A stretch of 60,953 nucleotides of DNA, filler included, from 6 parts of 6 records of this genome joined end to end with filler, not necessarily neighbours in it, one strand, 5' to 3'. Counted from the whole stretch's first letter, positions 15,332 to 57,389 are shown. The notes: generated by a model not told the origin, from the letters alone. Numbers and translations are program-made.

Positions 15332-15476
15332 CAGGGGCACGACCGGCCGATGCGTGCGTTCACTTTGCAGGTGCCATCGCTGCAGTCGCACCAAAACGAA
15401 AGGCTGGTTGCAGGGCCCTGTCTTTCGTGCGTGCTGATGTCTCACACGGTGTGGTTTGTGCCGCAGAGGGTGTGGG

Positions 15477-23000: not shown

Positions 23001-26000
23001 CTTGCCAGACGGAGGACCGAAGACGCCCTTACGGCGCTTGTCCATCTTGCCGTCCAGGATATCTTGCGTCATGTTCGCGGATGTCTGGGCAGAGAACGTC
23101 AGTGTCAGCGGGAGCTGCTTTTGTGCGTTAAGGCCTTCCTGCAGGTATTTCATCACGTTCACTGTCTTGCCAGTGCCCGAGACACCAGTGTGCAGGCACA
23201 TCTTCCTGTTCTTCGACAGTTGGTCTAACAGGTAAGTATAGCAGATGCTGTCTTTGGTAGGGATGATCATCTCCTGGAACTCGGCGCCGTTCGGAACTTC
23301 GTAAGGAGGTTGCGTGTCTAGCCACCCGACCCATGATGGAGCACCACCAGCCTTGCCAGGTTCCGCACCGCCGAGGTCTAGCACGTAGTCGTACACCATT
23401 CCATCGTCAGGGAATGGAAGAGATGCTCCGTGCTTCGCCATCTCCTCTCTGAAGAACTTGTCGAACTTCTCACGTCCTTGCGCGTCACCAGTGCACCCAA
23501 GCGACCAGACGAACGCGAAGTAAAACAAGGGCTCTACTATCTTCCCGAGCTGGTCCAGCATCTCCTTTGAGATCGGGTCCATACTGTCGTCCCATTTATA
23601 CGCAACCATGTAGCAATCCAGGATGTTCAGGCAAGACATGCAAAGGTTGTTATTCACCGTCGGGACTGGCTCTTCAACGTTGCGGCGCAGCCAGAACACG
23701 GTAGGCTCCAGGTATTTGTCGAAAAGATCTTGGAAAAGCTCTCCGTGCTTCTTGCAGGCATCCGGGATGCGGTACTGAATCCACGAGCGAACCAGTGCAT
23801 CAAGGCCCAAACTCTTCGGCTCCATGTAGATCATGCCACAACGGCTGACTGTCGCAGGGCTCGCGACAGCCAAATCTTCGACCTCGAACATCATAGTCAT
23901 CTCGTCAGACATCTTGATGATTTCTCCAGAATTCAGGCAGAGCTTCTTGTTGTCGTCGAGTACTGTGTTCATGTTCTCGATCCAGATGGCATCCACCAGC
24001 CCATCGAACATGATCCACTTCTTGTCAGGCGAGTTGTCCACCACAAAATCACGCATGCCGTTGGCAACGATACCATCTGACCACTCGTGTGTGACGTCGT
24101 CAAACTGGCCATACAGCTGGCCCATGGTGATCGACTTGGGGTTCAGAATGAATTGCTTGACGGGTTCAAATTCGCCGACCCCCATTGCCTTCAGCTTGCC
24201 CATGGCCATGGCCAAGGTCTTGTAGCACTTGGTCTTGCCGCCACCCGTCGGCCCGACAAGCATCATGCCGTGGCGAACCAATGTCATCGAGTAGAGCTCG
24301 ATGACCTTATTGATCAAAAACTCGTGCTGCTGCAAGCCCTGGTCGTCAATCGACTCGCGAATCATCAATTCTAGGTCACCGTAGTCGATCTTTGGTGTGT
24401 CAAGCGTCGGGAATAGATCCTTGATGATACCAGCGAAAAGTGGCAGGTCCTGGGCCAAGAATTTCGGCACGTTGACATCGACAAGTGCACGTAGAAGAAG
24501 CATCTCCTCCAACGCATCTGGTTCGTCGGACTTCAGGTTACCACCTGCTACAATCACGGTCTTCACGGCACGCATACCGTAGTCATAATGCGACTGCGAC
24601 GAGAGCTGCTCAGAGCAGAGACGGAACGTGGCCACCATCGTGCGCCCGAGGCGCTGGGCGTCCCCAAACCCGAATGAGATAAACATGATCTCGCCGATGA
24701 GACCGTAGTCGGGAACCATCATAGACATAGGACGGAACAATGCCTGCAGATTATCTGGAAGCTCAGTGCGACCCGCGTAACCCGGATTCATGGTGATAAA
24801 CACAGCAAATGAATCTTTCAGAGGGATGTCGGAGCCTTCGAACAAGAAACGCTTCTGGCCGTTCTTAATCGCAGCAACGATCGTGATCATCTGTTGTGCA
24901 ATGACGCTCAACACTTCGATGTCAATCCGATTGAACTCATCGAAGCAGGCCCATGCACCAGCACTAGCCAGACCTTTGAAAAACTTTCCCATGGCCTTGT
25001 AGTCTAGACTGTCAGAACAATTGAACACAACGCACATCTTGGCGAGTGCCTTGGCGAGATCCTTAGTTGTCTCAGTCTTGCCTGTGCCGGCTGGTCCAGC
25101 TGGTGCACCACCAAGATCGAGATACATTGCTCCCATCAGCGTCATGTAGCAACGGTCAGTGAGCGGGGTGATCACAAGGCGGAAACTGTTGCCCAGGTAT
25201 TCGTAGCCGTAATACTGGCACGCCTGGACCAGCTTGATCCATAGGTCAGGGCCATCGCCCGGAGCTGCTTGACACCCCGTAGGATCTGGGCAGCTGCTCT
25301 TGTGCTTACCCTCACGCCGCTCCCAGTAGTAACGCATTTGCGACACCCAGTCGAAATCGTTGATCGTCTTGATCTCGTTCTTCACCAACTTAGCGACGAC
25401 GTCACGAGCGTGCACCTCGATCACAATCAAAGCACCGATACCCATTCTTTGCTGCTTCGTCAAGTCACCTCGCACCAGGTTGATAAGATCGTCGATCTGT
25501 GCCAAGGCTTGCTTGTAGTATTCCCTGACACCATCTGTGCCCGATGTGGTGATCTTTTCCTCGAGTTCTAGAGTCCAGAAGTACTGGCTGCCGTTGATTA
25601 CGCACATGGCCGCATGTTCCCTGACCCAGTCAGATCGGGCAGATTGGTAATAGGCCTTAATCGCGTTCTCCATCGACAAACGCACACTCCGTTGCATCAT
25701 ACGCTCTACCTGTGTCAACCAGTCTTCAACGTTGCCCTTCGGGTACAACTTGTCTGCAAACGCTACTTGTTCGCCCTCGCCAGAGATCATCTCTACCATA
25801 GCGAGATCGTCCTCGAACTTCAGCTTCGCAATCGCCTCGAAACACTTCCGCAAGTGAGGCTGGACTGCACGCGGGTCTTTAGTTTGCGAGAGGATCTCGA
25901 GCAGCTCGTCGTTCGAAAGGAAGTAGAAACGAGCGAATCCAGCACGTTTGGTTTCGAGGTAGTCATTCAGACCTTTGCTAACAAGCTCGAGAAGCTTGTT

Positions 26001-26669: not shown

Positions 26670-26769
26670 NNNNNNNNNNNNNNNNNNNNNNNNNNNNNNN
26701 NNNNNNNNNNNNNTTAATTAATTAANNNNNNNNNNNNNNNNNNNNNNNNNNNNNNNNNNNNNNNNNNNN
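26670..26769. other. Artificial contig spacer
   Basis: Same N44-TTAATTAATTAA-N44 linker. Confidence 0.99.
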
Positions 26770-31030: not shown

Positions 31031-31130
31031 NNNNNNNNNNNNNNNNNNNNNNNNNNNNNNNNNNNNNNNNNNNNTTAATTAATTAANNNNNNNNNNNNNN
31101 NNNNNNNNNNNNNNNNNNNNNNNNNNNNNN
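31031..31130. other. Artificial contig spacer
   Basis: Same linker. Confidence 0.99.
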
Positions 31131-36544: not shown

Positions 36545-36644
36545 NNNNNNNNNNNNNNNNNNNNNNNNNNNNNNNNNNNNNNNNNNNNTTAATTAATTAA
36601 NNNNNNNNNNNNNNNNNNNNNNNNNNNNNNNNNNNNNNNNNNNN
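36545..36644. other. Artificial contig spacer
   Basis: Same linker. Confidence 0.99.
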
Positions 36645-39600
36645 CCATACACACTCGACAGCTCGTTCTTCTCGATGACGGTCACTGGGTTCTGGAACTT
36701 TGACCTACCAGATGTGTCGTTTGGGTTCTCCGGTAACTTTAGCAATTCTACGCACTTGTTTCGTCCGTGCTTATCGGATGCCCCTGCTGATTGTAATCAG
36801 ACTTGCGTATGGAGAGACTTTGCGTACTTTGATGATGACGTTCCGAGGATATATATCGGCTTTGACGACAACTGCTTCTCTGATTACGTACCCAAGTCCG
36901 ATGGTACTGTGGACCTGTACGCTTACATTGCCACGGACCTGGAAGACACGACAATGATCAGCACAACAATGGGCACAGCACTGACTGACTTCGTGTCTGA
37001 AAGTTCTCGAAGCACCTTCATTGCTGCTCAATCAGGCGTCATGGTTGCCATCACTTTAGATATTGACATACACGATTGGACATCTGATCACGGAGTCATT
37101 ATCGTCAACGAAGTGGCAGGACTTCTACAGCTGCCACCAAGCGACGTGCTTTTTGTGAGCGTTAAGGCAGCTTCAGTAATCGTCACGATTCAGATTGTCA
37201 ACCCAGATGGGGCAGCCCTCGTAGCTGCGCTTCAAGCTTTAATAATAGATGACGAACACTCAACATTGTACACAAGTACTAGTCTTCTTGCTCAGGTTGT
37301 CGCCTCGATTCCATTGACCGTGGAGCACGTGCGTGGAGCCCAAGAGAGTGGTCCGTTTTACCTTGATCGGTCGTTTTTCGAGAGAAATTTTACTCGGTTT
37401 TTCGACCCTGGTCAGCCGGATGCTCGGTTTCTGTTCCATGGCGCTGCAAATGGATCTTACGTATTCAGACCTTGCTTTCATACACCGCCTAACTTCACGA
37501 AATCAGGGGGAAATCTATCTTCGCTGCTCGAGGAATGCAGTACCTCTGCCAAATCTGTTGTGCAGTCCGACTGCGAAGTTGTTCGGCCACCACGACCCCC
37601 AGAGCAAGCTGGATGGCGCTTGAACTGGAGTGAGCTGCGCAAGAAATGGAACTGGACACCTGAAGACAATGAGGTGCCGACAGCAGAACAGACAGTCTGG
37701 GTTGAGCCTGACGACAATAGATGCCAGAAAAGCCTGCCTGGTCGTGAGCTCTGCGTATGGAGGGACATCAAGCATTATGAGAACAACCCGCCTGCGATCG
37801 AGATATCTTTTGACGACCCCTGCTTTGCACTGTATCCACCTGACCACAGCGTCCTCTCACTATTCGCGTGGGTGACCACTGACGGGGGAGAGAATGAGCT
37901 AGTGTCAGTCTCGATGGAAAAGGGTGTGGCGTGGCAGTGGAAACCGGATGTGAATGTTGACCTGCTGTCTGTATACTCGGGAAACGCCACTGGACTGAAC
38001 CCGCGCTCACTTGTAGATGCAGGGAGCATAGCCACAGGACTCGACGTGCGAGCATATTCAGGCGTGCGGAACAAAAACGGTTTGGACATATTTGACGGAT
38101 CTAGAAACCGTGGCGTTGATACCAACCAGATCGGGGAGATCAATGAGCCTGCTGCTTTTCTCGTCCCTCCACCACCTCCGTTACCGTGGGGTCGAAACAT
38201 GTGGCTCAGGGATTTGAGTCCGTACTACCAAGAGCCTGACCTCCCGGCGCTTGGAAATGTTAGCTGCTCGGACTCCGGTCCCCCATGCCTCAATGGTGGC
38301 ATCTGCCGTGGTACCAACATCGACGATAAGCAACAAAATAACCCGCTACAGTTTGTGGATGGCGCTGTCTGCGCTTGCCCGTACGAATTTGGTGGGCAGT
38401 TCTGCAGCGTGGAGCGCTTCGTCGAGGTGAACGAGTCGACACCGTTTCCTCCAGAGGTATACAATCTTACGCTGAACATCAAGGGGCCCCGTGCCGCAGA
38501 CGTACCAACATGGTCCGAGCTAACTGTGTGGGACACAAACGAATGCTTGCTGGCGAACGGCGGGTGTGGTCACCCTTTGTCTGCATGGTGTGAAAATCGC
38601 TGTGGGCAATTGCCGCTTTGTCATTACACAGATGGGACTGTGCTCGAGGCACCCAACGTGACAGCGATGCTACTGCTGACCCAGAAGTTCGAAGGGTTCG
38701 GTGGAGAATTCTCGGACAGGCGCGCTCAGCAGCTTCACCAGTGGGACACTCAGCAAACTGCAATTTATCGCATGGAGCTGGGTGCTGCTGCTGCTGGAGG
38801 GGTGGTACCATCGAGTGTTCATGCGCCGCTGGACGGCTGGCAGAACGGATCTTGGAACAATCATTCACTGCACAACAAAACACTATTCAACGGCACTATT
38901 GGGCGCCGACATCTGCAGTATCAATTGTCTCCAGATGATGTGGGGCCAATTGATGGGCTGGACACGAAGAGCGGTGGAGCTTACGTGTCTATGGATGCTA
39001 ACGTGTCTACGGATGTGCTCGTGCAAGCTTACGGGTCGGTGCAAGAGTTTTGCTCGCACAATCTCATCAATGAGAACAGTACAGAAGCTATCATTGAGCT
39101 TTGCAACAACACTGAGCCGGTGTACGAGGAGTACGTCCCGGATGCATACGTTGATGCAAGTGCTCTGCTGTGTCGCGGCGAAGATGCGCAAACTAGAGAC
39201 TTCGTCGTACAGTCAAACATGATTAATCCCGCAGAGCACTGCAATGCTGGGTGGAGACCAGATATTTGTCTGGGAGAGGGGAAAACGTGGACCTATACCG
39301 TCCGTATGGCGCAAGCCCCAGCCTCGAACGTAACACTAACGGTATCGGGCAAATTTCTGCAGACAAATGTGAGTGTTGTGTTTACTCCAGATGACTACAA
39401 TATTCCGCACAATATTACTGTTTTCATGGCAGACAACATGGCGATCACCGGGCATGCATGGATGGAGATTGTGCACACATTTGTTGGCGGCGTGCAACCG
39501 ATAGACGATGAAGCACTTTTAGGTGCACTTGGGCGGAATTCTGCAGGTCATCTATGCTCCAACCGCAGCAAGTACCATTGTAGTGATGGACGGACAGCTT

Positions 39601-42600
39601 GGTCTCATGCGCGTGTGCCAAACCTGCCCGCTGACAACATGACCGGCTGGCTACAGGGTGACAACATGACCGGCATGGGCGCATGGACTCCTGGAAGACT
39701 TTGGAGTTCGACAACGAACAGTTATTACCCACTGCGGCTACCTGTGCTATATCTTGACAACGATCGTTTCGAAATGCATCCTTATCTTGGAGAAATTGGC
39801 CGTAAATTCCAGCTAGATACGCGCGTCGAAGCTGAGCAGCCTGCCTGGCGTGGACCGTTCACGTTGGGTCCGTCATTTTTTTCGGCCAACACTGCGCGTT
39901 GCCCTGATGGATCAACAGAATGGCCAGATGAAAGTTGCCTTGATGGCGCTGAGTGGGACAAGCGAAAGAGGATATTGACAACCGCTAAATCCGCTTTCCC
40001 CCCGGCGCCTCCACTTGTGGCAGACTGTGAAATGGAGTCGTGCTCACTGTCAGGTGAGGATCCTGGGTTCTGGACACACGACAGGCGCTTTGGTCTGCCG
40101 GACGTCTCGTTCAGGTTTTTTGGGCCATTCGGCTCCGTGGATAAGATTCCTTTGAAGCATCCACAGCAAGCTTTGTACGCGTTTCGACCGTGCTACGTAG
40201 AGCCGCCTGGCCTGCCTAGTGACTTTTACGACTTGAACAATATCAAGTGCCCTGAGATGGCGAAGTACCACCTCGAACTGGATGACGAAGAGGAGGCCCC
40301 GCCCTATCCTAACCAGTACAGGGGCCCAGCACAAGACCAAGCAGAAGACCCATTGTGTCTGTGGTCGGTAGTCTATCAGTGGGAGCTCAACCCTCCGACG
40401 CTGTATATCGGGTACGATGACCCGTGCTGGAACGCTTATCCACTCGACGAGCAGAACATGTACGTTGACCTTTACTTTTTCATTACCGACGTTTGGGGGG
40501 CCGACTTCGAAGCTGTCTCTGGATTTGGTGAGATTCCTGATGTCGGCGACATGGCTGCGCCCGAAGTTCCTGGCGAAGGTCCTGGGGGCATGGGTGTCCC
40601 AGGACTGCCTACCGGGCCAACCCAGCAATTCTCTCTCGGCGATCCAATTACCATACGCATTTCAATGGAAAAAGGAAAACGGCTCAACCCTGCTCTGATG
40701 CCGGATAATGTCGGTACGCAGGGGAAGGCGGGCACCTCTGCTGTCGTTGCATCCACCGCTCTTGGCGCCATGTTCGGTGATCCCGTCGGTATGATCAAGA
40801 ATTTGCAAGAGACAGCGGCTGGTGGCTCTACCAACGCGCCGCTGAACGCCAACATGCGGCTTTTTGCTTCCAAATTTGGTTGGGTTAACATGGGATTCTT
40901 GAACCCGCCACCAGAATCGTTGGTGAACATGATGGTCCCTGGAGAGTATCGCACCCCACGACGCCGTCTCCGGCAGCTCAATGAAGCCGCAGCAAACGGC
41001 ACAGACGCACCCGAGGAATCCGATGACAAAACTTCTATTTCATCTGACTTACCTGACCCCAATGAGTCAGGCAATACCGGATTCTTGCGCAAGAGCGGTT
41101 TGTCTGCTGATGAGTTTTTCATTGGCACCATGCTAGCAATCCTGCTCGTACCTTTGGTCACCGGTGTGGTGCATGGGCCGTTGGTAAAACGTACTGAGAG
41201 GTTGAGAAACACTGCGCGCAACACAGTGCTTGACAAGCAGGCAATGATTCTGAAGCACAAGCAGTTCCAGCAGTTTGCGCCTGAGTTTGACGACTTGCTG
41301 CAGAAAATGCCTGAGTGGGAAACTCCCCCAAAGTTCAAGCTGTCTGCACTACTCCTGGGAATTGTAACGTTACAAAACATGGGTATCTGTCAAGCATCTT
41401 TGCTTGCAATCTTCGAACCTTCTGCAGTTACGACGAAACTGATGGCCATGGTGTGCATGTGTGTGTTTCCTGGGGGGTTTATCGTGTATACATACATCAC
41501 GCTTCGCGGCGTGATGGAGCCAGAGGCCAAGATTCCTCTGATTCTCACTGGGGGCATCGGAGTTCGCTACTGGACATTTGCACAGGTGGTGCTGCAGTCC
41601 ATTCCTAAAGCCCTTCAGCCGTACGACATCACATTCGAGTACTCAATTCCGCCAGAGCTCCGTGAAAAGCCTGTGCCCGTCGTACCATTCGTCCCGCCCG
41701 GCACGGCGCCGGAAGATGCGAAAGTGATTTTGCAAGAGGCTGCCGACGCCAACAAAGAGATCGCGACGGCCCGGCTACACGCAATCAAAAAGCTCGGCCC
41801 AGAGGCTGCTGTGCTGATGGGGAAATGGAACGTCAAGACGCCGGTGGCCGAGCAATGGATGGGTGTCTACGGCCAACAGTTCAAGATGTACACGAACAAT
41901 GGCTTCTGGCTAGTAGCCTTGGATCAGACAAAGCGCCTGATCCAAATCATTCTCCTTGCTGCGCTTGGGAGCTTGCCAGCACTCGGTCCCATGCAGGTCA
42001 AGCTACTGACCGCGCTTGCACTTGCAGAGTTCGTGATCATTTGCAAAACCCGTCCGTTCGTCAAGCTCTTCCAAAATTTGGAAGTGATTGGTACGCATTA
42101 TACAAAGATGTCGCAAATGGTAGCACCGATTCTGCTGAATCTGCACCTGGTTGAAGACCAGTTTACTGCGCTGTACATGATGGCAATGAATGGTATCGCC
42201 GTAGGTGTCGGAGTGGTCAAAGAATTCGGCGGTGCCATTTGGCCAATAATTAAGTTTGTCGAGGAAGAGGGGGAGGCAGTCGTCGGCGGTGCTTTGAAAA
42301 CCGTATTGGCCTTCTTTATTATGCTTGGTTACATCAAACGCAAGGTCCTTGGTGGAATGGAGCGACCGAAGCCTCCGCCCCCGATATGGCAGATGATCAA
42401 GATGCCGCCACCAGTTATCAACTTGCTCGCGGAGATGATGCCCGCGCCTGTGATGGAAGGTCTAACGTTGGCTATTGGTGACGCAAATCCAATCTTGAAG
42501 GCGTACGCGCAGACTTTTTCCAAGGTTGGGGCGGAATGGATGAAAGCCGAGGGAGCGAAGGAGCTCGAACGTCAATTCAAGCAGGTCCTTGATAGCCACC

Positions 42601-45600
42601 ATCCACGCCACAAGGTGTCCCTGATGAAATTTATCAACAGGTTTCATAAGGCTGCTATCTTGACAGTGTTTCAATTGTGTCAACCCAAGCTGAAATCGGT
42701 TGCGCAGTCTATCTACGACGAAGCAATGCGCGTTGCGACAGCGGAGCGAGAGAAGCGTGCAAATGCGAAATCAGGAAAAGATCCCATCGCAGCGGCGATG
42801 GCTATCATCAATCCAGAGATGGTTGGTAAACTCACTGGATTGCTCGGAGACATCCAGCCCCGCATTCAGCAACTGATAGGCAGTAGCCTCAGATCGCTGG
42901 AAAAATGGTTGAAAAATGGTGGCCAAAAGCAAATCGATGTGGCACTGAAGGAGGTTCAGGCCCGTGTGTCAACCATGATGAAAGACGCTGAAGCAGTTGC
43001 GAAGGAGAAAGCCATGGCTGTGGCGAAGAATGCTGAGCAGAGATCAAAAGATGTCGCAAAGCAAGAAGCCGCAGCCGCAAACAGTGGTTCAAAGCGTGGG
43101 AAAACGAAAGCAAGTAAGGGGGAAATTAAGCAGATGAAAGCAGATCTGGAGGAGCTGAAACGCAAAGTGGAAGAGGCGAGAGCACAACAATTGCAGCTCA
43201 ATGAACTGAAGCAGAGAATTGAGAGTGCGAAGTCCGATGCAGGAGCGTCTGAAGATGTTAAGGCGCTCAAAGCAGAAGCCAAAGACAAGGCAAAAGCGCT
43301 TGTTGACGTTGATTCGCTTCAGAAGCAGGTTTCTGACAAAGCAGCCGAGATTGTGGTGGCATCTGGCGGCCCAAACATGGCAGGGATGGCGGACAAATTG
43401 GAAATGGTCCGAGCAAAACAAGCTGAGCTCACCCAACTCAAAGCCAAGCTGGACGCTGCAAAAGGGAAAATCGCGGAATTGGAAGCTTTGCGTGGGCAGA
43501 TCGAAGACGCCAAGGCAGATCCGTTGAGCAGATCTGACGTCGGTAAAGAAAAAATACAGACCCTCGAGCAGGAGCTCAAGGCGAAGTTCGGGCGTAAGGC
43601 AGCACAAGCTGGTGGCGACGACCAAAAGGCTTCGAAGGAGCTGGCCAGTTTGGAGAAAGCAGTGACGCAAACGGCAGCTGAGATCGTGTCACTGTCCCCA
43701 CTGCCCAGTGCAAAGGAGAAAATGGAACAAGCGAAAAGAAAGAAAGCCGCAGTCGATGCCAAGAAAGCAGAGATCGAGAAGCTAAAAGTCCAGATGGAAG
43801 CAATCCAGCAGAAGAAGGAGGATGGCGACCAGGCAGCTATTGAGACGGAGCTTTGTGCCAAAGCTGAAGAGCTGCTTGAACTGATGGGCGTCCCAAAAGG
43901 CTTTCCAGGTGGTGCCATTATAGCAAAGATGGAGCAAGCCAAACAGTTGCACATCGATATAATACTGTTGAAAGGGCAGATTGATGACGCAAAGAAGGCG
44001 GTTAAGGAAGCAAAAAAGCAAGGAGTGGCTGCAGTCGCAAAAGCTGAAGAGCATGCTAAAGGTGCAGTGCCTGATATGCAAGCGCACGCTGAAGATGGCG
44101 TGGCTAGTGCTCAAGTTCATGCGCAGCAAGCGATGGGTGACGTGAGCAATGCAGCAGGTGGTGCTGCAACCGGTAATGCGGGAGCATCATCGGAGAATAT
44201 GGAGCTAGCTGCTCGGGTCAAGGGTGGTGAGCGGCCGCTGGAGCTAGCGTTCAGAATGATGGGTGGGCCAGAGGAGGACCTTGCAGCGTTGCAGGAGCAG
44301 CTTGCACTCAAAGGCGAGGAGTTTAAAGAGATGATTGCTGGCACACCGATGGATCCTAACACGCTGCCAATCAAAGTCCCAACAATGCAATTTGTCAAGA
44401 AGGGTGTGCTTAAGGCAGGCAATGATTTCAAGGCCATGCTAGAAGCACAAGGTGGGGAGGTTGGAGCGCAAATGGCGCTGATCGACCTGGACGGTGACTT
44501 GAAGATGGCTCCACTTGTTCGTGAGTTTAGCAAGTTGATGCAGGTCCAAATCATTGCCTTGGCTCGCAAGAAGATTGTGCCCGTTCTTGAGCGAAAGATC
44601 GATGGTATAGGACTACCAAACCGTGTCATTCTTGCGAAAGTCAAAGAAATCGTTTACGATCTGGCAGAGAAAATTTTGCGCAAGGCTGTGAATGACAAAG
44701 TTAAGGCTGTGTCAGCTGAGCTGCTCAACAGGCTCAAAGTTCCAGGATGTGGAGTAAAGGTGCAGAAGGCTGAGAGTGAAGAGAGCGATCAGTTTGGTTG
44801 GGTGATCAGTGAAGGTGACTACTTATCTCAGAATCCACGCTTCGGCCTGGCACCTGTGCGTGGAGTGGGTGGGAGTTTACAGGCAGAGATCAACAAGGTG
44901 ATTGACCCAGAGGTGCAGCAAAAGATGAAAGATGCGTTGGGACCAATACTTCCTATCCTGAAGGCCTACGTCTCCGTAGCAAGCACTAGCGCAAAGAACT
45001 GGTTTGAGAAAACAGGCAAGCCACAGATCGCGGACGCTAAGGCAGCAGTTGCCGAAAAGAAGAGGCCCGACAAGGACATGTTGAAGGGTCTCTTACTATC
45101 GATTGAATGTCCGGTATTTAAGTGGCACAAGAAAGGTCTAGCTTCTGCACTTGATATCGTTCTGCCCATGCTGAAGGAGCGAGGTGGCATGCTCACACAG
45201 CGCATGGAGGAATGCATTGCTGCAGCCCAGAAAAAACTTGGAAGCAAAGGAGCGATTGACGTAGCCACAATAGTGCCTGCGCACGTAGACAGCATGGCAG
45301 ATACAGATGCAGGTGCAGATGTAACGTTTGCAAACCCACTAGCAGACATCCACGACGAAGGCTCTGCTGACCTAACCCTAGCTGAACGAATTCAAGGCGG
45401 CGCGGAAGATGCGAAGGCAATGGCAGATGCTAAATTGAAACAGGTACAAGAACTTCAAGCTGAATTGGATGCGCTGATGGTTCAGATGGAGGCGGTTCGG
45501 GAGCAGGTGCAAGCAGCTAAGGAAAGTAACATCCCTGAAGACGACATTCCTAGTTTGGACGGCCTAGAAGAAAAAAAGGCTGAGCTTGAGGCCGAGATCA

Positions 45601-48600
45601 AAGAGCTTACTGACGTCGACCTCGATGCATTGGCGGCGATGGCACCGTTTCCTTTGCCGTTTGACAGACTCAAGCTCAAAGCGTCACAGCTTCGACGAAT
45701 GTTCGACCATATGATGCAAGAGGCCGTGATGGACAAGGTCTACACGGACCTGTTTCCAACACTGGACTCGAAATTGAAAGCATTAGGGCTACTCGGTCCT
45801 GTGGCGAAAAAAGTCAAAGCGTTTGTGTACGACCAGGTAGAGGACAAGCTACGGCAAGCGATCCACATGAAGGTTGTCGAGCAATATGACAATCTTTCTG
45901 GATCAATGAAACCACCAGACCTGGGTGTTGCACAAGAGAAAGGGGATGGAAAGGGCTTTCATGAAGCCGAGGAAGAAGACGAGTTTGGATGGGAGACAAA
46001 CCTTGGTGGTTGGGATAAGGAAAAGAAGCGCCGCAGAAAGGCAGGAGACGGCCCTGGAAGCCCAGCAGCTTTGGCAAATCAGATTGTGGGACCAGAAGTG
46101 ATGGCAAGGCTCCAAGAGTTGGCCACAGGCGACAGTCCACCTGGTGATGCCGTGGGAGCGACCGATACCGATGATCAGGACGCGACCGGACCTGTTAGTG
46201 TCCCGCGTTTGATACAAGTGTACATCGAGGCTGCGCATGGTGCCTTCGAGATATGGAAAGAGGAAACAAGGACTATCATCCTGGATGCTGGGAAGAACCC
46301 GAAAAAGCTTCTATCTATACTGGTTCCGTATCCAGATTTTCAAGCTGCCGGTCTTCGGGCTGCCTTGAGGCGAATGCTTCCGTTCATCCTGGCGCAAGCT
46401 GGTCCGATGGCGGAACGTGCACAGGCTTTAGGGTTGGCCAAAGCTGCTGAAGCCCAGGCGAAGGTCGAAGGAAAGGCTCAAGCTCAAGCCCAGGAACAGA
46501 TGGGTGGATTCGAAAACGCACTTGTTGATAGTGATCTTGATCTCTCTGGTCGAGTCCAAGGTGGAGCACCAAAGCCAATCGGCCTCGATGCATTCGACAT
46601 GCCTCGCCTTCGACGTGCGTTCAGCCAGCTGCTGCAGGAAATGGTAATGGACAAGGTCAAGCTTGAAGTCTTCCCCTTGTTGGACTCCTCCGTGATGGAC
46701 TTGTGCACTGAGCAGGACATTCCTGCTTTTGTTGGGAAGAAGATCAAGACGGTGGTATTTGATATTGCCGAAGAGACGGTCCGGAAGCTTATGCATGGTC
46801 AAGTATTGCAGGCGTTTGCACAGGTGGCTGGGAAAATGCAGATGCCGGGAATGGGTGAGGTGTCACCGAAAGAGAAGAAGTCTGACAAAGAAGACGACTT
46901 CGGGTTTTTGGTCAAAGAAGGTGGTTATCTAAAATACCATAAGAAAGCTGGTGCCACTGGCGGCATCATGGACTTTGTACAAGTAGTGTTGGATGACAAA
47001 ACTGTTGCTAGTCTCAGCGCGCTCGCAGACGAAGCAGCTCCATTCGTGAAGGAATACGTTGCTGGTGCGATGAAGGAACACGGCAAGTGGGTGTCACACG
47101 AAGGAAAGGTGCCTCTCAAAGAGGCTGCCGACAACCCAAAGTTGCTCAGCAAAATTGAAGTCCCAGCATCTGATTTTCACAGAGCAGGTCTATTGGCATC
47201 GATCGCGAACCTCAGATCAAAGATGGAAAAGGCCGGCGGCAAGCTGCAGGAAAAGGCTCAGATGGTGGTCACCTCTGCAGATGATCGCAGTACAGACCTT
47301 CGCCGTGAATTGGACCAAATGGCTCAGGAGTTCGTTATGAGCATTTGTGAAGAGAAGATCTTTCCTAGACTCAAAAAGTCTGTAGGTAAAATCCCCAAAA
47401 TGCCACCTGGCCCAGTGAAGAAAAAGGTCACGACTCTGGTTTTTGATATGGCTGAGGGCACCGTCCGCAAAGCTGTGCACAATCAGATTCGTGATACATT
47501 TGCAGAGTTGACAACACAAATGGTGCCTCCTGGCGCATCAGTAGCAGATGAACAAGGGGAGGAACAAGAAGAGGACGACTTCGGCTTCCTAGTTGAACAT
47601 GGGGGATATAAGGCTTTCAAAGGGGGGAGTGCAACTGCGGGCCTGAAAGCCGCTGCAATTGGGCATGCAAAGTCAATCTTAGACGCGGATATGCTGAAAA
47701 AAGTGGAAGCCCAGGCAGACAGCATCGTCCCATTCATCCAGACGTATACCAAGGTAGCGGAAAAGAAGAAGGAAAAATGGATGCAGAAGGTTGCGCAAGC
47801 TGAAATGGACAAGGCGACAAAGGAAGGGCAGCCACTGTGCAACATTCAGGTACCAGTGGCAGAATTTCAATCCGAAGCTATCATGGCAGCAATCAACAAA
47901 CTCAAGCCCAAGATGGCAAAACTGGGTGGAACAGCAGGAGACCTTGCTGCACAAATTAAAGTCGACCCAAAAGAGCTCCCTCACTCCACAGATATTCGGC
48001 GGGTACTTAGTCAGCTACTGCAACAGTACGTGATGGACATGGTTGAAGAGCAGGTTTTCCCCGAGCTGGATGCCTCGGTACAGAAATTGCCGATCCCCAG
48101 CGTTGGACCAATGAAGGCTCTCAAGGCGCAAGTTACCGTCCAGTGTTACAGTCTAACGGATGAGACCGCGAGAAAGCAGGTCCACGCAAACATTCTGGCA
48201 GCGTTTAGTACAGTCGAAGATCAGATGAAAGTGCCAGGGTGTTCCGTTGCGGAAGAGGGTGGAACAGCACAGCCAGAAGACGCGTTTGGTTTTTTGAAGT
48301 CCAAAGGTGGTTTCAAAGAGTTCAAGAAAACGGAACTGTTGCATTCGACTGGGAAGATGGCAGCTGCAATGGGCGCGGCTGCAGTAGCTGTCGCAGTCGC
48401 AGGAGCGGCGGCTGCAGACGAGATGCCGACAGTCTTCGGCAAGTGCAGACACTGCATACAAGACCTGAAGGTGTACGGTCCAGCTCACCCGTGCTTTCGT
48501 GAGTTTGGTGCTATCGATGAATGGATATGCGATGTGTGTGGAAAGGGCAAGGACAAGAAAGACCCCCTTTTCTGCTGCGAAAGGTTTGATGACTGTGACT

Positions 48601-51600
48601 GGGCCGCCTGCGTCAAGTGCCAGCTGCTGCCAGACCCAAAAGATCACGTGGACAAGATAATGGACAAGAACATGCGCAAGTCGTTGCAAGGAGCTGTCAA
48701 ATCCCTAAACTCGCTGATCAAGGTCTACGCTGATGAGGCGCAAAAGGATCGTCAGCGCTGGCTTGTGAACGCAGCTACATCTGGTCAGAAGAGAATCGAT
48801 GCAGCCCGTGAGAATGGGACCCTCGGCGAACTGCAGGTGCCAGTTGCATGTTTTCAGAAGGCAGGCCTGCTCAGTTTGGGTAGCCTTGTGAAGCCGAAGA
48901 TGACTAAACTAGGTGGCAAGGTGGCCGCACGCGCAGCGGCCGCTGCCTTGACGGATCGTCAGCACAGTACAGACCTGCGGCGAGAGGTAGACTTGATGTT
49001 GCAAGACCTCATTGTGGAGCAAACGAAGCTTGCCGTGTATCCAGAACTTGACAAAAAGATCCAGATGCTGGTGCGTGCCGGACTTGTCGCCATTCTAGCG
49101 CAGAGTTTGATAGCTCCCTACTAAGCGTGACATTGCATTGTTGTGTTGTGAAACTGTGGGATGAACCGTGCAGAGTGATCGTCACAGGTCCAAGAAGGTA
49201 CGTCTGAACGGACGGCAAACCTGTTCATTACCTCTGGATGGACTGCACTGCTAACCTTTTGTCACTGTGGTCTGGGCAGGGGCTCAAGGCGTTTGATAAG
49301 CCAACGAAGAAGTCTTTGAAAATTGCGGTATACATGCTTGCAGAAGAGACCTTACGACGGGCTTGCCACGAGAAGTTTGTAGACGCGTTCGAGTCTACAG
49401 GGCAAATGTTGCAGATCGAAGGATGCAGCCTGGAACCCGAGCCAGCAGGGGGACACGAGGAAGACGAGTACGGATTCCTGCAGTCAGCAGGAGGCTTCGA
49501 GTCATACCGCGCCAATCAGGTGGATCTTGTTCCGTTTTTCGACCAAGCGGCATTTGTGGACAAGGTATTGGACAAGAAGATTAGGCAACTTATCGACAAG
49601 ACCACGAAGTCTGTGTGCACAGCACTGGCAGACTACCAGAAAGTTGCTATTGCAAAACAGCAAGAGTGGTTGAAAACTGGAGGTCAGCAGGCGATTGATA
49701 GTGCAACAGCAGACGGATCAGTCGGAGGGGTACGCGTGCCAATTGCCAAGTTTCACATCGAAGGACTTGCCGCATTGAGCAGAGTTCTGCGTCCAAAGAT
49801 GGAAGAGATGGGTGGCAAAGCTGCCGAGCGCGCAAGTGTGACCCAAGCGCCACCTGGCGGCGGCAGCACCGATTTGCGCCGAGAGACCAGCCAGCTGCTC
49901 CAGCAGATGGCTGTGGATGAGTTTTTCTCTTCCGCGGCGGCGATGTTTGAAAAGAACCTGACAGTTCTAGATTTGTCTGACTGGCCGGAAGAATCTAGAA
50001 CGAAAGTCAGGACAGAGGCTTTGGATGTAGCTGAGGAGGCCATTCGGAAAGCCGTCCACAATCAGGTGCTAGATACTTACAAAAGTGTCTCCAAGCTTGT
50101 GAAGGTTGATGGCTGCGGCATCTTCAAGGAGATGGGCGAGACGAAGCTAGAAGACTCCTTCGGGTTCCTGACAGCTACTGGTGGCTACAGTGCGCACAAG
50201 CTAGCCAATCAGGTCGCCCCACATGGGGCAACAGAATTCAGTTCAGCTGCCTGGACTACGGAGCAAGCTTTCGGCTTTTGCAGAATCTGTAGTCAGCAGC
50301 TCCACCTCTATGGCACGAGCCATGCTTGCTTTCCCGAGTTCGGCAAAATTGATGAGTGGGAATGCGACGTCTGCGGTCTGACTTATGGTGAAGCGGATGA
50401 CCTATTCTGTTGCCCGACGTTCGATCAGTGTGACTGGGGTGCATGCCAAAAATGCCAGGAGTTGCCAGACCCACGGCCGTATGTAGAGAAGGTCATAAAC
50501 GCTAAGGTCATGCAAAAGCTGGAAAAGGTGACGGTCGCTACTTCGTCAGTGATGGGTAATTTTGCGCAAGTCGCACAACAGAAACGAAAGGAGTGGCTGG
50601 ACGCCGAAGGCCAAGCACTGATTGAAAAGGCAACACAAGACGGTGATCTAGGCAGTGTGCACGTGCCGGTGTTTTCGTTTCAACTTGAGGGCATGCACAC
50701 TGTCAAGGACGCCATTGTCCCAAAGATGCTTAAATTGGGTGGTAAAGCTGCGGCGCGTGCGGAAATCTCACTCATCGATAGAGACACAGGTGCGCGAAGT
50801 ACTGACCTGCGCCGGGAGCTCATCCACTTGCTTCAGCAGCTGGCCGTGGATGCAGCACTTGTGACTGCATTTCCAGATGTCGATAAGAACATTACCTCCC
50901 TAGAGTTCCCTAGAAATACCCCAAAAGGTACCAAACGCCTGGTTCGCAGAGCTGTGTACGAAAAGGCGCAGGATATCGTTAGAACATCTGTATATAGCCA
51001 GGTGATGTCGTCCTACAACAATACAACAAAAGCATTGGAGGTGAAAGGTTGTAGTTCTGTGCCCGAGGATGGCGAGATGCAGCCAGAGGATGATGTTGGC
51101 TTCCTTGAAGCAACCGATGGGTATGCAGGTTACAAGGCAAGATTTAAAGCCCAAGAGTTGCTTCGCGCGGAGTACCAAGATTTGGGTAAGAACCATTTGA
51201 TTAACAAACTCAAATCGGCGGGCGACGGCATGGAATCGTTGAGTACTGAAGGTAGCAAAGCGCAGCTTATTGAGCGTTTGATGGCAGCCGCAGTAGAATA
51301 TGCGTGGGAACCGCATCTGGACGCAGCTGAGGAAGCTCAAATCGCTCGAGAAAAGGCCGCCAAACAGGCTGCACGTTCCCGACTGAGAATGCTGGAGCCT
51401 GAGCTAGCAGATCTGGACGCTTCAAAGCTCCGTAAGCAGCTTAAGAAACGGAAGCTCGACACTACAGGTAAGAAAGTGGACCTCTTAGAGCGGCTTTCCA
51501 AAGCGCTAGAACACGAGAGGACCGCAGGAACGAGTCCAGATGAAGCGAACCAAGCGACAGCTGCAGGAGCGCGGGACCCGGGGCTTGAGGCCGAGACTGA

Positions 51601-54600
51601 ATTGGTAGGGAAGAAAAAGAAAAAGAAGAAGAAGACCTCGGACGCCTCGCATACCTCTGAGTCTGTTGCCGAATCTGAGATGGTATCATCACGCGATGCT
51701 ACGTCGACAACGAAGACGAAGACGAAAAAGAAGAAGAAGAAGCAGAAGAACATGGACGCGGAGACACTTGATCTGCCTGATCGCGTGAAAGGAGGCACGA
51801 GTGACTATGATTTTGTGGAAGAACTGCAGGCGCTGATGGAGACTGTCGCTGCCGAGACTGCAGTGGATCGTGCCGTGTGGCAGTACCTTTCGAATGACAA
51901 GCCTGACGAGGTCGACCTGACAAAGCTGAGAGCAGAACTGCAGATTAAGTTCTTGGGTGCACGTTCTACCGATCTGATTCACTCAGCCTCCTCGCTGCTT
52001 AGTTTGGATGAATCAGCCTCAACCGAAAGAATTCCTTCAGTTGATGATATCATGTCCGAACAGGAGCAAGGCATCAGAGCTCGAGTTGAGTCAACGGCTT
52101 GGGTCATCGAGGCCTTTGAAATGGATTTAAGCCAGCCGATTTTGGAAGATGCTCTCGCGGCAAGCCTTGCGCATCCAGACTTTGAGTGCCTATGGGCGAC
52201 CGATCTTAGTGCCGGGCCGGGATGCCTGCCTCCACATGCCTTGGATCTGTCAGGTCATGTGCAAGGTGGCATTGCGTTCGATCACCTAGGCGACATGGTC
52301 CTGTCTTCAAGTTCGGATGTTCGTGGCAAGTCGATATGTGATCGATTCGTTTTCAAGGTAACTGCATCGATAGCGCGCACCCTCGATCACCACGGCCTTG
52401 CGTGGTACACATCCCCTGACATGGCTCGCTCCGAATGGTCTGCATCGAATCTATTCGCCAAGCATTTGGGGTTGGAGTCACGTGTCAGAGGTGGAGATGC
52501 TGAGGGTGATCACCATGATGACGAGCAACACCATAGTGATGATGAACATCACACCGATCACGAGCACCAGAGCGATGATGAAGAGCAGCACGCGCCCGAG
52601 GAAGTTGAGCTGACCGAAGATGAGAAAGCGATTATGGCCGGTGAGATTGAGAATGTCGACGACGAGCTACTGCACGAGCAAGAGAACAACGCCCATACCG
52701 TGAAAAAGTACCAAGGGCTCGGGACGATGCTTCTCGAGAAAGCCCATAAGAAAATTGATCCCCGGGGCTGGACTGTCGACCAAGCCAAAGACTTTCTATC
52801 AGAAGTCATTCAAGACATTGTGTTTTGCCGAGCTTCCCTTGCGCTTGACCCCGAGATCACAGCGAAAATTGATCAGATAGAATACATACCGGACGGTGCA
52901 GACGTTCCTGTCGTTCTGCCGACTATCATGAAAGCAATACTGCAAAAAGCTGTAGATGAAATGATTGAAGGGACGGTGAGGGAACAAGTTGATAAGTTAG
53001 TTCGTAAGTGTTTCAAGGTGGCTACCAGGGTCTTCAAGAAGACCGTGCCAGGCATTGAAATCCCTACGGTTGAAGAAGAAGGAGAGGACGAAGAGGGAGT
53101 CGAGGCAGGCGATGACGATGCCGAAGATGCCAGACTAGACAAACTAGGGGATGGGCACCGCGTCATGCTCGAAGAGGGACTCGACGAGTATGTCACGGAG
53201 GACATCATTCCAACTCATCAAACTGCCGGTGCCGCGCTTGTGGCTGGTGTCGGAGTCGCGTCGATACTGGGCATCCCTGAGAAGGACTCCACTGGGAATC
53301 GTCCGTGGATATTGACCATTCTCGATGAAAAAACTCTTGAGGCCGCATTGTACAACTTGACGTGGCTAGATCCAGTGATGAAGGAATACTCAAAGCAGGC
53401 ACACAAGGCTCAAGCAGATTGGTATTCAAACCAGTTTCCGAGGCTAAAACGTAAAATGAAACAGAAAGACAGTGCAAAGCAACGTCAATATCGTGGTCAG
53501 GAAAACGTCCAAATTCCTGTGCACATGTTCCATTATGCTGGCCTTGACAGTGCGGTGAAGCTTATGCTGAAGAAAATGAAGAAGGGTGGCAAAGCATTGA
53601 AGGTTCTTGGCGAACAGCTTGCCTTGAAACTTCCCGCCAATGGCGGGACTTTGACAATGGAAGAAGACAGCGAAGGGCGAGCAGCGATGGCCCCACTGGA
53701 GTATAGGGCCGTAGTGATGGAGATGATGCAACACTATGTTCAGCAGCACACAGTAAATGTCTTATTTCCGGGGATGATAGACGCTCAAGTCGACAAGGTG
53801 GCAGAGATGATAGCCAAAGATAACAAAAGCAAAAAAGGTACGAAGAAGCATTTAGACAAGCAAGGCCTCATACTGCAAAAGGAAAAGCTACGAAAACAGG
53901 CATATGACTCAGTGATGTCGCTCATCAAGAGCCAGGTAGCACTGACCGTGCATGACACGTGGGACAATATCACGCGCAAGTTAGTGATTCCGGGAACTGA
54001 AGCATCAGTGCCAGTTGATGACAGTCACTGGACGTGCGTGCCTACCCTCGGTGGCTGCAAGAAGTGTGGATCTAAGCTCAGCCTGTTCGACACGAACCAC
54101 GTAGCCTGTAAGTCAGAGCAAGATGTTGAAGACGGCGACGTTCCGCCTCTTATAGATGCAGACAGAGAAAAGGGTGATGCACGCAAGACACTGAAGCAAG
54201 TACTCGGTGTGGATTCGGAAACGAGGCGCCTGTGTGACGTGTGCGGCAACAAGATCAAATTTAGAAATGGAACTTTTGACATGCTGTTCGTCTGCGACAA
54301 CTTCGCTGTGTGCGATTGGGGCGCGTGTGGGCGTTGCCAGGCAAGGATTGTTGCCACTTCGGATAAACCTCCCGTCCAAACCTCGAAGCGCTCAAAAAAC
54401 TGGAACGGTAGGAAGGACAAGAAGGAAAAGCAGCAGAAGGACAAGCAAGGAGACGGTCAGAGCACAGAGGGTGATTTCGAATACATCGCAAATCCGTTGG
54501 GGCCGAATGACGACGAAGAGACCCTGGATCCACTTGCAGAGCTGATGGAATCACCAGAGGCAAAGAGAGAAGTTCAATCTTCAGCTGCAGGCGCGCTGAT

Positions 54601-56761
54601 GCAACAATCAACATTTGTGTTGGACAAGCACATTCAGACTCTTTTTGGCGATGGAAAGGTCACAAAGAAGCTTGAAAAGCTCGCCGGAAATGCATCCGCA
54701 GCAATGGCAGAATACGCAAAGGTAGCAAGGCAGCAGCAAAAGGAGTGGCTGAAGACGGAGGGTCAGCAGTTCATCGACATCGCCATGGCAGAAAGCACGA
54801 TGGGTGACGTGCTTGTACCTGTCGATTCATTCCAAATCGACGGGCTGCGGGCTGTACTCGTTTCGTGTGGCAACATGGTGGCCGAAAAATATCACACTCA
54901 GGCACGTGCACGACTAGAAATTTCGAATATAAACGAACCGTTGACTCGCAGTACGGACCTTCGACGCGAGGTCAGCCATTTATTGCAACAGAAGGCTGTA
55001 GATGAAGCTGCAGTCAAGGTGTACCCGGAGCTTGATACGAGAATCGCAAGATTGGATTTAGAAATGGGTACGGCAGACAGTTTGCGCAAAGCGGCATACA
55101 GCATGGCCGAGGATACCGTGCGCATGGCAGTGCACAGTCAAATACTCGCCGCCTACAAAGATGGCAAACGAGCGTTGAAGGTCAAAGGCTGCGGCGTCGC
55201 GAAAGAGCAAGGCAGCCCTCAACAGGTAGATGAGTACGGGTTCCTTGTTGCACTGGGCGGATATCCTGCATTCAAGCGGCGCAAGGAAACGCAAGAGAGC
55301 CTGCGCTGCGTGTACGAAGACATGGGCAAGGACCACCTGAAAGTCAAACTAGCACTTGCGTGCCCTAATGCTGCCACCAGCGGGACTAAGGCGGAAATAA
55401 TTGAGCGCTTGATCATGGCAATGATTGAATACGCTGCCACTGCAGAACTTGCTGATGAGGAAAAGGCTCAAATCAAGCGTGAGGCAGAGGCGAAGGCTCT
55501 TGCGCTCCAACATTTGAGGACACAGGGCGAAGAGTTTGCAAGAATGAAGGCCCCAGCTCTACGTAAGGAACTTGAGAAACGTGGTCTCAGTACGACAGGG
55601 AAAAAGGCAGAGCTCATGGAGCGACTTGCCAAGTCACTAGAATCGTTTCAAAGTGACGTGGAGGCGGGGAAAATTGACGTTCAGAATATGGCCAAAAGGC
55701 TGCCGCCATCGCCCAGCGCGCCGGTTCCACAAACGAAGTTTAAAGGCAAGCTTCCCGGCTCCAAGAAAAGGGGCAAGCAGACGAACAGCGAGGAGAACCC
55801 AATGTTCAAGAATCCCCTGGCATCTGCAGATGCGGCAGGCACACCTACTGCAGATGAGGTCGGTCAACATCATGGTACCGATGTTTTTGAAGGAGATGAT
55901 GTTGACCTTCAAGATGAACAAACTCCACGCAAAGGCATGAGGAGCAAGAAGAAACGCAAGAGTACGAGCAAGGGCAAGAGCAAGAAGGGTGCCCCCGCGC
56001 TCAAGCAGGAGGATACGGACGCGGATTTTGTTGCGTTTGCAAACCCGCTAGCACAAGATCCGGCGGAGAATGACAGTAGCAAAAGCGATCCTGCTGGCAA
56101 GATGAAGAACCCTATGTTCGATGATTCAGTGGATGGTGCAACGATGCTGCCTGCCGGTAGGCTGGCGCGTAGCAAAGGCAAAAATGCAAAGAAAGGCGAA
56201 GGCAAAGGGCGCCCAAAGGATGAACAGAAGGATGTTCAATTCAGCAACCCACTAATTGGTAGCACTTCAGATATAGAGGACGAAAACCCGAGTCTACCCA
56301 AATCGAACAAGAGCGAAGTCTCAACGTCAGAGGTCAGCGCCAGCCGGCTTACAACACCACAAGGCGACCCAACAGCCGACCAGAAGGCGCCAGGCAAATT
56401 TGCGAAGCCGAAAGGCAAGACGAAGATGGACAAGAAGAGGAAAGCTTCTTCAAAAGTCAAGGCTAGCACGAAGGCAACTGAGTCAAAGCAAGAAGCGGCC
56501 AAATTTCGCAATCCACTAATGCACATAGATAGTTTCGATGCTGGTGCGCCAGACTATGATGCAAATCCACTAGCAGAGCAGACTGACCGGTCACTTAGTG
56601 TCGACAAAAATAAGAGTGGCAAGGGCAAACAGAAAGGAGGTCGTGGCGGCAAGGGTGGCGCGACCAAATCAAAGAACAAAAGGAAAGCGCGTCATGAAAT
56701 TAAATCCAAGACAACCAATCCCATTCACGATGGGGCAAAGCAATTTGAGGAAAGCGAGTAA
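36645..56761 (+). CDS. Giant receptor/channel-like membrane protein, >6,600 aa (5'-partial; exons 36645-49070 and 49280-56761)
   Basis: The 4149-aa and 2507-aa ORFs share the same ~200-aa repeat and join in phase 0 in the middle of a repeat unit. The frame is open to the contig start (PYTLDSSFFS matches GPFYLDRSFF and GPFTLGPSFF of later ectodomain repeats). Two EGF-like modules ~38260-38410 and ~38530-38625. Calx-beta-like module ~39270-39480. Hydrophobic block ~40730-42330 with YGQQFKMYTNNGFW...QVKLL...RPFVKLFQN, resembling the TRP/Flc-Pkd2-like membrane domain. Confidence 0.85.
49071..49279 (+). other. Intron (209 bp), possibly two introns around a 24-nt micro-exon
   Basis: CTG|GTGCGT...GCTAAC (branch)...GGCAG|GGG, with in-frame stops inside. 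Confidence 0.8.
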
Positions 56762-57289: not shown

Positions 57290-57389
57290 NNNNNNNNNNN
57301 NNNNNNNNNNNNNNNNNNNNNNNNNNNNNNNNNTTAATTAATTAANNNNNNNNNNNNNNNNNNNNNNNNNNNNNNNNNNNNNNNNNNNN
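57290..57389. other. Artificial contig spacer
   Basis: Same linker. Confidence 0.99.

Follow-up and report, generated by a model that had tools for sequence, protein, structure and literature searches.

Ubiquitin-tail-like short linear motifs in the cytoplasmic tail of a giant membrane protein, candidate sites of cleavage after Gly-Gly

Why should a giant membrane protein carry, along its cytoplasmic tail, several copies of a peptide that resembles the end of ubiquitin, and what might read them? The question is raised by one gene in a window of 60,953 nucleotides (the whole stretch of DNA that was analysed, six contigs joined end to end with filler), where it almost fills the contig piece 36645-57289. 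Two large open reading frames (ORFs), 36675-49124 (product P0001) and 49238-56761 (product P0002), are parts of this one gene. Its protein runs from an extracellular region through about seven membrane spans into a cytoplasmic tail of about 4750 residues, which contains helical repeat modules, Cys/His-rich finger-like modules and SAP domains. A sequence-only reading had noted six LxLxxR(V/I)xGG peptides in this tail and proposed that the protein is a polyprotein processed by deubiquitinases (DUBs). We find that the peptides recur at matching sites in diverged relatives, and we tentatively favour cleavage after the Gly-Gly pair as the reason for their presence.

The motif and its likeness to the ubiquitin tail

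The six reported peptides were recovered at exactly the positions given for them, both in the translation and in a six-frame regular-expression scan, and we added a seventh variant, LELAFRMMGG (Table 1). The pattern [LM]xLxx[RH][VIL]xGG is absent elsewhere in the window in all six frames. In 5000 residue shuffles of the two ORF products, the mean number of copies was 0.005 for the whole protein and 0.002 for the tail, with a maximum of 1, against six observed; the analytic expectation for the pattern is 0.0026. The enrichment over shuffled sequence, which the sequence-only reading had named as a check, is thus clear. As a background in real proteins, 120 dynein heavy chains (465,252 residues) contained six matches, all at one homologous position around residue 3780-3910 (P0108, P0132, P0171, P0177, P0189 and P0191), where L[TSA]LQPR[IV][AST]GG lies in a conserved segment of the C-terminal domain. 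A match to the pattern in a folded protein can thus have unrelated reasons.

Recent duplication of DNA does not explain the seven copies, because their synonymous codons vary (Leu as CTA, CTG, CTT, CTC or TTG; Arg as CGG, AGA, CGA, CGC or CGT) and their 60-nucleotide flanks are nearly random, with identity at 7-23 of 60 positions where chance gives about one in four. An F-x-N-[PA]-L-x-D stands upstream of both site 2 and site 3. The repeat modules have a conserved end of their own, ...KMxK[LM]GG, which is distinct from the motif; it is found 45 residues before motif 3, and in the relative P0049, too, it comes ahead of the motif.

We compiled a sequence logo from 23 non-identical instances collected with a relaxed pattern, numbering the residues backwards from the second Gly (P1); the selection itself partly fixes P10, P8, P5, P4, P2 and P1. 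Leu stands at P10 in 19 of the 23 instances and at P8 in all of them, Arg at P5 in 22 (His in one) and Gly at both P2 and P1. P4 is hydrophobic throughout (Val 16, Met 3, Leu 3, Ile 1), and P3 is mostly Gln, Arg or Lys (9, 7 and 5 instances). Ser and Ala are frequent at P7 (nine and eight instances), as are Asp and Glu at P9 (nine and three). Beyond the Gly pair, no residue reaches more than 9/23 at any of the next ten positions, and what is left is an acidic bias (32% versus 15% in the background). Across 89 proteins, the N-terminal half [LM]xLxxR[VILM] was followed by xGG in 20 of 26 cases, and R[VILM]xGG was preceded by [LM]xLxx in 20 of 25. This coupling of the two halves, in a test independent of the full pattern, indicates that the motif is one ten-residue unit.

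Positions P10, P8, P5, P4, P2 and P1 correspond to L67, L69, R72, L73, G75 and G76 in the textbook sequence of ubiquitin. Deubiquitinases and viral LXGG proteases read R72-L73-x-G75-G76, and constraint confined to the non-prime side is typical of tail-reading proteases. The motif ends in a tail of the same R-hydrophobic-x-G-G type and, judged by its residues, is a copy of the last strand and tail of ubiquitin-type modifiers. The body of ubiquitin does not accompany it. None of the seven sites (0/7) has a ubiquitin-family Pfam match in the 100 residues before the GG, even at E<=10, and the AlphaFold2 models consist of helix and coil, with no beta-grasp fold. The earlier remark that no ubiquitin fold is evident around the motifs agrees with these results, and the Pfam search found no remnant of such a fold upstream of the sites.

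Conservation in relatives and exposure of the sites

An exhaustive HMMER search of 1.84 billion representatives with residues 2500-3699 of the P0001 tail returned 86 proteins, most of them metagenome fragments, and a word-based search yielded P0003, a relative of 6509 residues. Three relatives carry EukProt names of Picozoa single-cell genomes, and P0004 bears the EukProt name Picozoa sp. Strict copies of the motif occur in 10 of 87 relatives (45,619 residues; neither the window's own proteins nor two members of the P0007 cluster were counted). They number 14, whereas 1000 shuffles gave 0.042 on average and never more than 1, an enrichment of more than 300-fold.

The motif is kept at matching linker positions in relatives of 30-55% identity, which answers the question of orthologue conservation that the sequence-only reading had raised. 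In P0071 (53% identity), sites 4 (LELTERVKGG) and 6 are kept, and site 5 appears as the one-residue-longer MDLSTTRVCGG. An intact LSLDKRLHGG in the same protein aligns with the relic LSLDESASTE of the window. P0004 shares the three-site layout behind the SAP and finger modules, with MGLSDRVKGG aligned to site 4 and IALTHRMQGG to site 5 in a region whose intervening sequence has otherwise diverged. Site 3 is kept in P0049 (LDLSSRVQGG), and site 2 is kept as LSLAERVQGG in the close relatives P0010 and P0024.

Site 6 is family-wide. Among the proteins that match the divergent C-terminal module and have at least 120 residues upstream of it, R[VLM]xGG precedes the module by 14-63 residues in seven of eight. 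The exception, P0012, matches the module weakly (E 3.5e-6) and may contain an ordinary module instead. By eye, P0007 and P0071 also carry the motif 6 site. P0017 has the variant TRLFWRVRGG and also a near miss, LGLSNRVRGA; another near miss, LDLSGRVHQS, ends the fragment P0013. A metagenome locus search gave two loci, both from the same species as P0071, and a word-based search with the region of sites 4-6 gave P0071 and P0092 only. No relatives were found on viral contigs in a scan of limited reach (two peptide patterns only), and the sources examined held no annotation of the family.

From these alignments, we conclude that L-x-L-[SA]-x-R-[VLMI]-[QRK]-G-G is a conserved short linear motif. 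It shows the features of that class, namely a number of constrained residues within the usual 3-12, a setting predicted to be disordered, conservation in orthologues amid diverging flanks, and gain and loss between lineages. Its retention marks it, on sequence grounds, as a real functional signal.

Our models predict that the sites are exposed in linkers. Motif 3 (model residues 19-28; predicted local distance difference test score, pLDDT, of about 42) lies within segment 1-37, where the pLDDT is below 50, ahead of a helical module with a pLDDT of about 90, and it is not docked onto this neighbouring module. Motifs 4 and 5 are in coil, and so is motif 6 apart from four helical residues (390-393). 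All three fall into blocks with a pLDDT of 30-45, and one helix only separates motifs 5 and 6; the model of this region is poor (mean pLDDT 44, eight-row alignment). Motifs 1, 1b and 2, read from the translation, lie in Gly/Ala/Ser-rich or acidic low-complexity sequence. The module copies and the models agree with the earlier placement of the motifs in linkers and insertions rather than at a fixed core position of the repeat, and they predict that the motifs are not buried in folded domains.

Cleavage after Gly-Gly and competing explanations

We tentatively read the motif as a cleavage site for a separately encoded cysteine protease specific for ubiquitin-type tails, which would cut after the GG and release fragments of the cytoplasmic tail. 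We consider this plausible, if short of probable. The match to the ubiquitin tail, the abrupt end of constraint at the GG, the exposed linkers and the placement at the borders of functional blocks together fit a cleavage site that is read from its non-prime side. In the proposed mechanism, a protease that reads tails of ubiquitin or ubiquitin-like (Ubl) type would bind the exposed R-hydrophobic-x-G-G and cut behind the second Gly; candidate enzymes would be of the USP, UCH or OTU kind, or of the clan CE ULP/adenain-like kind. A cut at the family-wide motif 6 would free a C-terminal module that comprises an acidic run, divergent helical modules, a Cys/His finger, a SAP pair and the NP[LM]-rich tail. 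The extra sites in the window's lineage would free more pieces, one of them with a SAP pair and Lys-rich tracts. The logic would be that of a membrane-tethered factor set free by regulated proteolysis, where cleavage, enzyme class and fragment fate are all what we infer.

A more elaborate version seems to us somewhat unlikely as a whole. It describes a receptor-like, membrane-tethered signalling protein with ubiquitin-tail mimics that lack the fold, at which a cellular protease of PLpro-like linear specificity would cut the tail. Fragments with SAP pairs, fingers and Lys-rich tracts would move into the nucleus, the membrane stub would be left with a GG C-degron, and the released module would carry an arginylation-type N-degron and act as a short-lived signal. 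The residue after the GG is Asp or Glu in six of nine family-wide sites. If true, mimicry of the ubiquitin tail in the absence of the ubiquitin fold would underlie a pathway of the Notch or TUG kind. The sequence-only reading had also suggested that cleavage could leave conjugatable Gly-Gly ends, which appear unlikely in a peptide without a ubiquitin body.

Known systems offer partial parallels. Cellular proteins cut at an internal diGly by DUBs include USP1, FAU, SDE2 and TUG, and a ubiquitin-like fold precedes the diGly in all four (PMC8013793). The same source describes the clearance of GG-ended N-terminal products by a C-degron pathway in human cells (PMC8013793). The C-terminal product of TUG leaves a membrane-associated anchor and enters the nucleus (PMC9556833). 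DUB-cut fusions as a group (polyubiquitin, ubiquitin-ribosomal fusions, FAU/FUBI-eS30, SDE2, TUG, which Usp25m cuts, and USP1, which cuts itself) have the same R/x-hydrophobic-x-G-G before the scissile bond, and the cut releases a functional C-terminal product, a parallel that we propose for the giant protein. In these fusions, however, a folded ubiquitin-like domain ends in the diGly, whereas none was found before the seven sites described here, which are multiple, internal and situated in the disordered linkers of a membrane protein that exceeds 6600 residues.

Viral LXGG/GG-X sites (those of coronavirus PLpro and of the turnip yellow mosaic virus, TYMV, and marafivirus PRO/DUB) are likewise short linear peptides in which P4 is hydrophobic and P2-P1 are Gly-Gly. 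They are reported to be read without a ubiquitin fold, to occur several per precursor and to have their specificity on the non-prime side. Adenain and pS273R of African swine fever virus (ASFV) are further cases of this type. Linear sites of this form also occur in the giant protein, in linkers predicted to be exposed. Viral polyproteins differ in encoding their own protease, and Pfam detects none in the giant protein, which is the product of a spliced cellular gene with no relative found on viral contigs in the limited scan. Constraint in its motif also extends over ten positions, with Arg at P5 and Leu at P8 and P10 among them, whereas the viral sites constrain four. A viral origin of the gene was rejected on the same scan and on the removal of GT..AG introns in an RNA contig.

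Two further comparisons can be drawn. The PRO repeats of HCF-1, which are cut by O-GlcNAc transferase, likewise place several copies of a short motif in the middle of a very large protein that undergoes proteolytic maturation; sequence, enzyme and chemistry are unrelated, and the analogy is one of layout only. Double-glycine leaders of bacteriocins, which are cut by C39 peptidase domains, share a hydrophobic pattern that ends in G-G and a cut after it. These leaders are N-terminal and bacterial, with a helical spacing (-4, -7, -12, -15), whereas the motifs here are internal, with a strand-like i, i+2 spacing and an invariant Arg at -5. To our knowledge, bare linear sites of ubiquitin-tail type have been known only for viral proteases, and cutting after an R-x-x-G-G tail in cells only with a folded ubiquitin-like domain. 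Our full-text literature search found no description of fold-less ubiquitin-tail motifs in a cellular protein. What we propose as new is ubiquitin-tail-type recognition on bare linear sites in a cellular membrane protein.

Several points weigh against cleavage. The seven sites all lack the preceding ubiquitin fold, unlike those of USP1, FAU, SDE2 and TUG, and most cellular DUBs work poorly on tail peptides alone. The ubiquitin counterparts of the Leu at P8 and P10 face the core and are not read by DUB clefts, and we know of no tail-reading protease that needs Leu at these two positions. Their conservation in a disordered peptide therefore implies a recognition surface longer than a protease cleft, which favours docking. 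Pro follows the GG of motif 1b, and USP-type enzymes cannot cut before Pro; in motif 5, P5 is His. Pfam finds no protease domain in the protein itself (both ORF products, E<=0.1), and the disorder around sites 4-6 is suggested by a model of low confidence. The motif also stands at some module junctions only. Most have none, and the 6509-residue P0003, with about 25 modules, has a single site, so that the earlier term polyprotein overstated the case.

An uncleaved docking motif is possible. The L-x-L strand would add to the sheet of a partner domain and the R-hydrophobic-x-G-G would fit an adjacent pocket; the partner could be a DUB that is catalytically silent or binds the peptide as a pseudosubstrate, and the tail would then be a multivalent scaffold. 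Ten constrained positions with an i, i+2 Leu pattern do exceed the P5-P1 read by tail-specific proteases, and the ubiquitin fold was not found. The number of copies ranges from one to seven per protein, with gain and loss between orthologues (the LSLDKRLHGG of P0071 against the window's LSLDESASTE), which is typical of docking motifs, and a second motif, [FY]xNP[LM], is present in the same linkers. Docking does not, however, require conservation to end sharply at the GG, nor P5-P1 to be identical with the protease-read tail of ubiquitin. It has no known partner, and an intramolecular one is unsupported, since AlphaFold2 left motif 3 undocked on the neighbouring module.

It is quite unlikely that the motif is a structural element of the linkers, in which a short strand with a Gly-Gly hinge or cap would pack against the helical modules or set their spacing, without any trans-acting reader. 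GG hinges do belong to the architecture, as the module itself ends in ...KMxK[LM]GG, and a 10-mer that fits the pattern sits within a folded dynein domain in 6 of 120 dyneins. The motif is nevertheless distinct from the GG end of the module and coexists with it (at site 3, and likewise in P0049), its flanks are of low complexity and diverged, and the AlphaFold2 models show no packing. Most module junctions manage without it, and a hinge leaves the invariant Arg and the [QRK] preference unexplained. We give very little weight to the idea that the copies are functionless remnants of former ubiquitin-like domains, or chance similarities spread by repeat duplication. The resemblance does span the entire last strand and tail of ubiquitin-type proteins, and the F-x-N-[PA]-L-x-D upstream of sites 2 and 3 means that some copies may stem from duplication of a linker. 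Retention of matching sites across relatives while the flanks diverge, the differing codons, the coupled halves, the family enrichment and the missing trace of a ubiquitin fold all stand against it.

Other known motifs were considered and set aside, as they leave the invariant GG and the Arg unexplained: L-x-x-R sites of metacaspases and paracaspases, R-x-hydrophobic-x sites of site-1 protease, tankyrase-binding R-x-x-x-x-G, RVxF, reversed nuclear export signals, RGG boxes and 2A skipping peptides.

Whether the sites are cleaved, as we tentatively prefer, or bound, bare mimics of the ubiquitin tail that are kept over deep divergence would imply either an unrecognised cellular linear protease of LXGG type or a reader domain for ubiquitin-like tails that is independent of the ubiquitin body. 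Either would broaden what the enzymes of the ubiquitin system are thought to recognise. The motif would also be the first functional handle on an orphan family of giant membrane proteins from uncultured marine protists, in which the sole named relatives are Picozoa single-cell genomes.

The giant gene, its protein and other features of the window

The window is eukaryotic, with an axonemal-type dynein heavy chain, an EF-hand protein, an FKBP/SAM protein and others. Because it is a join of contigs separated by five artificial spacers, gene order across the gaps and gene neighbourhood are uninformative. In the giant gene, no stop codon interrupts the reading frame between the contig start at 36645 and the first Met (PYTLDSSFFS precedes it), so the 5' end of the gene and the N-terminus of the protein, including any signal peptide, are probably missing. 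The coding sequence of the first exon reaches from the extracellular region across the membrane spans into the beginning of the cytoplasmic tail. Both intron joints are canonical and in frame, and the spliced ORFs add up to 4132 + 8 + 2493 = 6633 codons, a minimum length. Support for the splice joints is weak, being a single metatranscriptome contig (run X15) with a depth of 3.4 and 23 letters on the short side. RNA contigs of at least 99% identity span the regions of motifs 1, 2, 3, 5 and 6 and contain no changes within the motifs; the stretch 51525-52126, in which motif 4 lies, had no RNA contig. The giant gene is transcribed and spliced.

Residues 1-1759 of P0001 hold 29 N-glycosylation sequons and 39 Cys, nearly all before residue 1481. 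The membrane region is preceded by 27 of the 29 sequons, and the P0001 part of the tail has two. This distribution points to an extracellular N-terminal part and a cytoplasmic tail and, together with the hydrophobic segments, fits the tail location that had been assumed for the motifs.

The tail holds a long coiled-coil-like stretch and a bipartite module of about 235 residues that is present in at least 12 full or half copies. Its half A follows the pattern STDLRRE...VRKxVH...EDxFGFL..GGY, and its half B the pattern W...VPV..F..GL...KMxKLGG; the AlphaFold2 model of the module was built with a 20-row alignment. A profile search against the PDB gave weak rows only (best E 0.036, apolipoprotein A-I), Foldseek found no match in the PDB at E<=0.001, and there was no usable match in the ESM Atlas and none in Pfam. 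The modelled module looks like an undescribed domain. SAP is the sole Pfam family above cut-off in both ORF products (PF02037, E 8e-24, 83 bits versus a cut-off of 23.9, two stretches; scan at E<=0.1). The three Cys/His-rich modules follow the pattern C-x2-C ... H ... C ... C-x2-C ... CC ... C-x-W-x-x-C-x2-C and have no Pfam match above cut-off. The idea that they are ZZ fingers able to read newly formed N-termini was dropped, as no ZZ match appeared at E<=10 and the only rows were sub-threshold ones for C1_2 and Zn-ribbon families.

The last 320 residues contain eight copies of a second linear motif, [FY]-x-N-P-[LMI], which often has an acidic residue behind it. Motifs of this type are also found near motifs 2 and 3 (45327-45347 and 46509-46529) and in the tails of the relatives P0003, P0008, P0041, P0042 and P0007. 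An RNA variant seen in two runs, 46518 G>C, changes FENALVD to FENPLVD and so restores the second motif. The motif is reminiscent of endocytic signals of the NPF/NPFxD type.

Table 1 Features of the giant gene and its protein, and spacers of the window (positions counted from the first letter of the window).
Feature	Coordinates	Strand	Remarks
Motif 1, MELAARVKGG	44199..44228	+	After coiled-coil region and Gly/Ala/Ser-rich stretch
Motif 1b, LELAFRMMGG	44238..44267	+	3 residues after motif 1; Pro after GG
Motif 2, LTLAERIQGG	45372..45401	+	8 residues after FANPLAD, ahead of coiled coil
Motif 3, LDLSGRVQGG	46536..46565	+	Predicted disordered linker, just N-terminal to helical A/B module
Motif 4, LDLPDRVKGG	51767..51796	+	Directly behind Lys-rich tract; coil, low pLDDT
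Relic site, LSLDESASTE	51998..52027	+	BLASTP alignment to P0071
Motif 5, LDLSGHVQGG	52241..52270	+	His at P5
Motif 6, LGLESRVRGG	52466..52495	+	Followed by acidic/His-rich run and divergent C-terminal module
Exon 1	36645..49070	+	ORF ATG 36675; donor GT 49071; ORF list, translation
Two GT..AG introns	49071-49173 and 49198-49279	+	Metatranscriptome contig, sequence
Micro-exon, 24 nucleotides, SDRHRSKK	49174-49197	+	Metatranscriptome contig of run X15
Last exon, remaining cytoplasmic tail through stop codon	49280..56761	+	
Membrane region, about 7 hydrophobic segments	41115..42335	+	P0001 residues 1481-1887; Kyte-Doolittle scan
Bipartite all-helical repeat module, one copy	46593..47267	+	AlphaFold2, pLDDT about 90
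Three Cys/His-rich finger-like modules	48417-48644, 50255-50482, 54005-54337		Inserted between A and B halves of repeat units
First SAP pair, degenerate SAP-like stretch and Pfam SAP domain	51197..51508	+	
Lys-rich tracts after first SAP pair	51611-51634 and 51725-51742	+	
Second SAP pair	55337..55639	+	Best Pfam SAP stretch P0002 residues 2100-2134
Terminal disordered tail, eight N-P-[LMI] motifs (mostly [FY]-x-N-P-[LM]) and Lys-rich tracts	55796..56728	+	
Artificial six-frame-stop spacers	15210-15309, 26670-26769, 31031-31130, 36545-36644, 57290-57389		44 N, TTAATTAATTAA, 44 N

Other contigs of the window hold further large genes. An ORF of 3027 codons on the minus strand (5239-14322) has no Pfam match at E<=0.001 and is another orphan giant protein, on a different contig from the gene described here. 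On yet another contig, a plus-strand ORF (15456-16922) encodes a trypsin-like peptidase domain (Pfam Trypsin_2, E 2e-18), with no link to the motif. The dynein heavy chain of the window (17034-26648, minus strand) has a complete motor; relatives with 85-95% identity are found among metagenome proteins only, and those of named eukaryotes go up to about 62%, so that a close relative that is both sequenced and named is missing.

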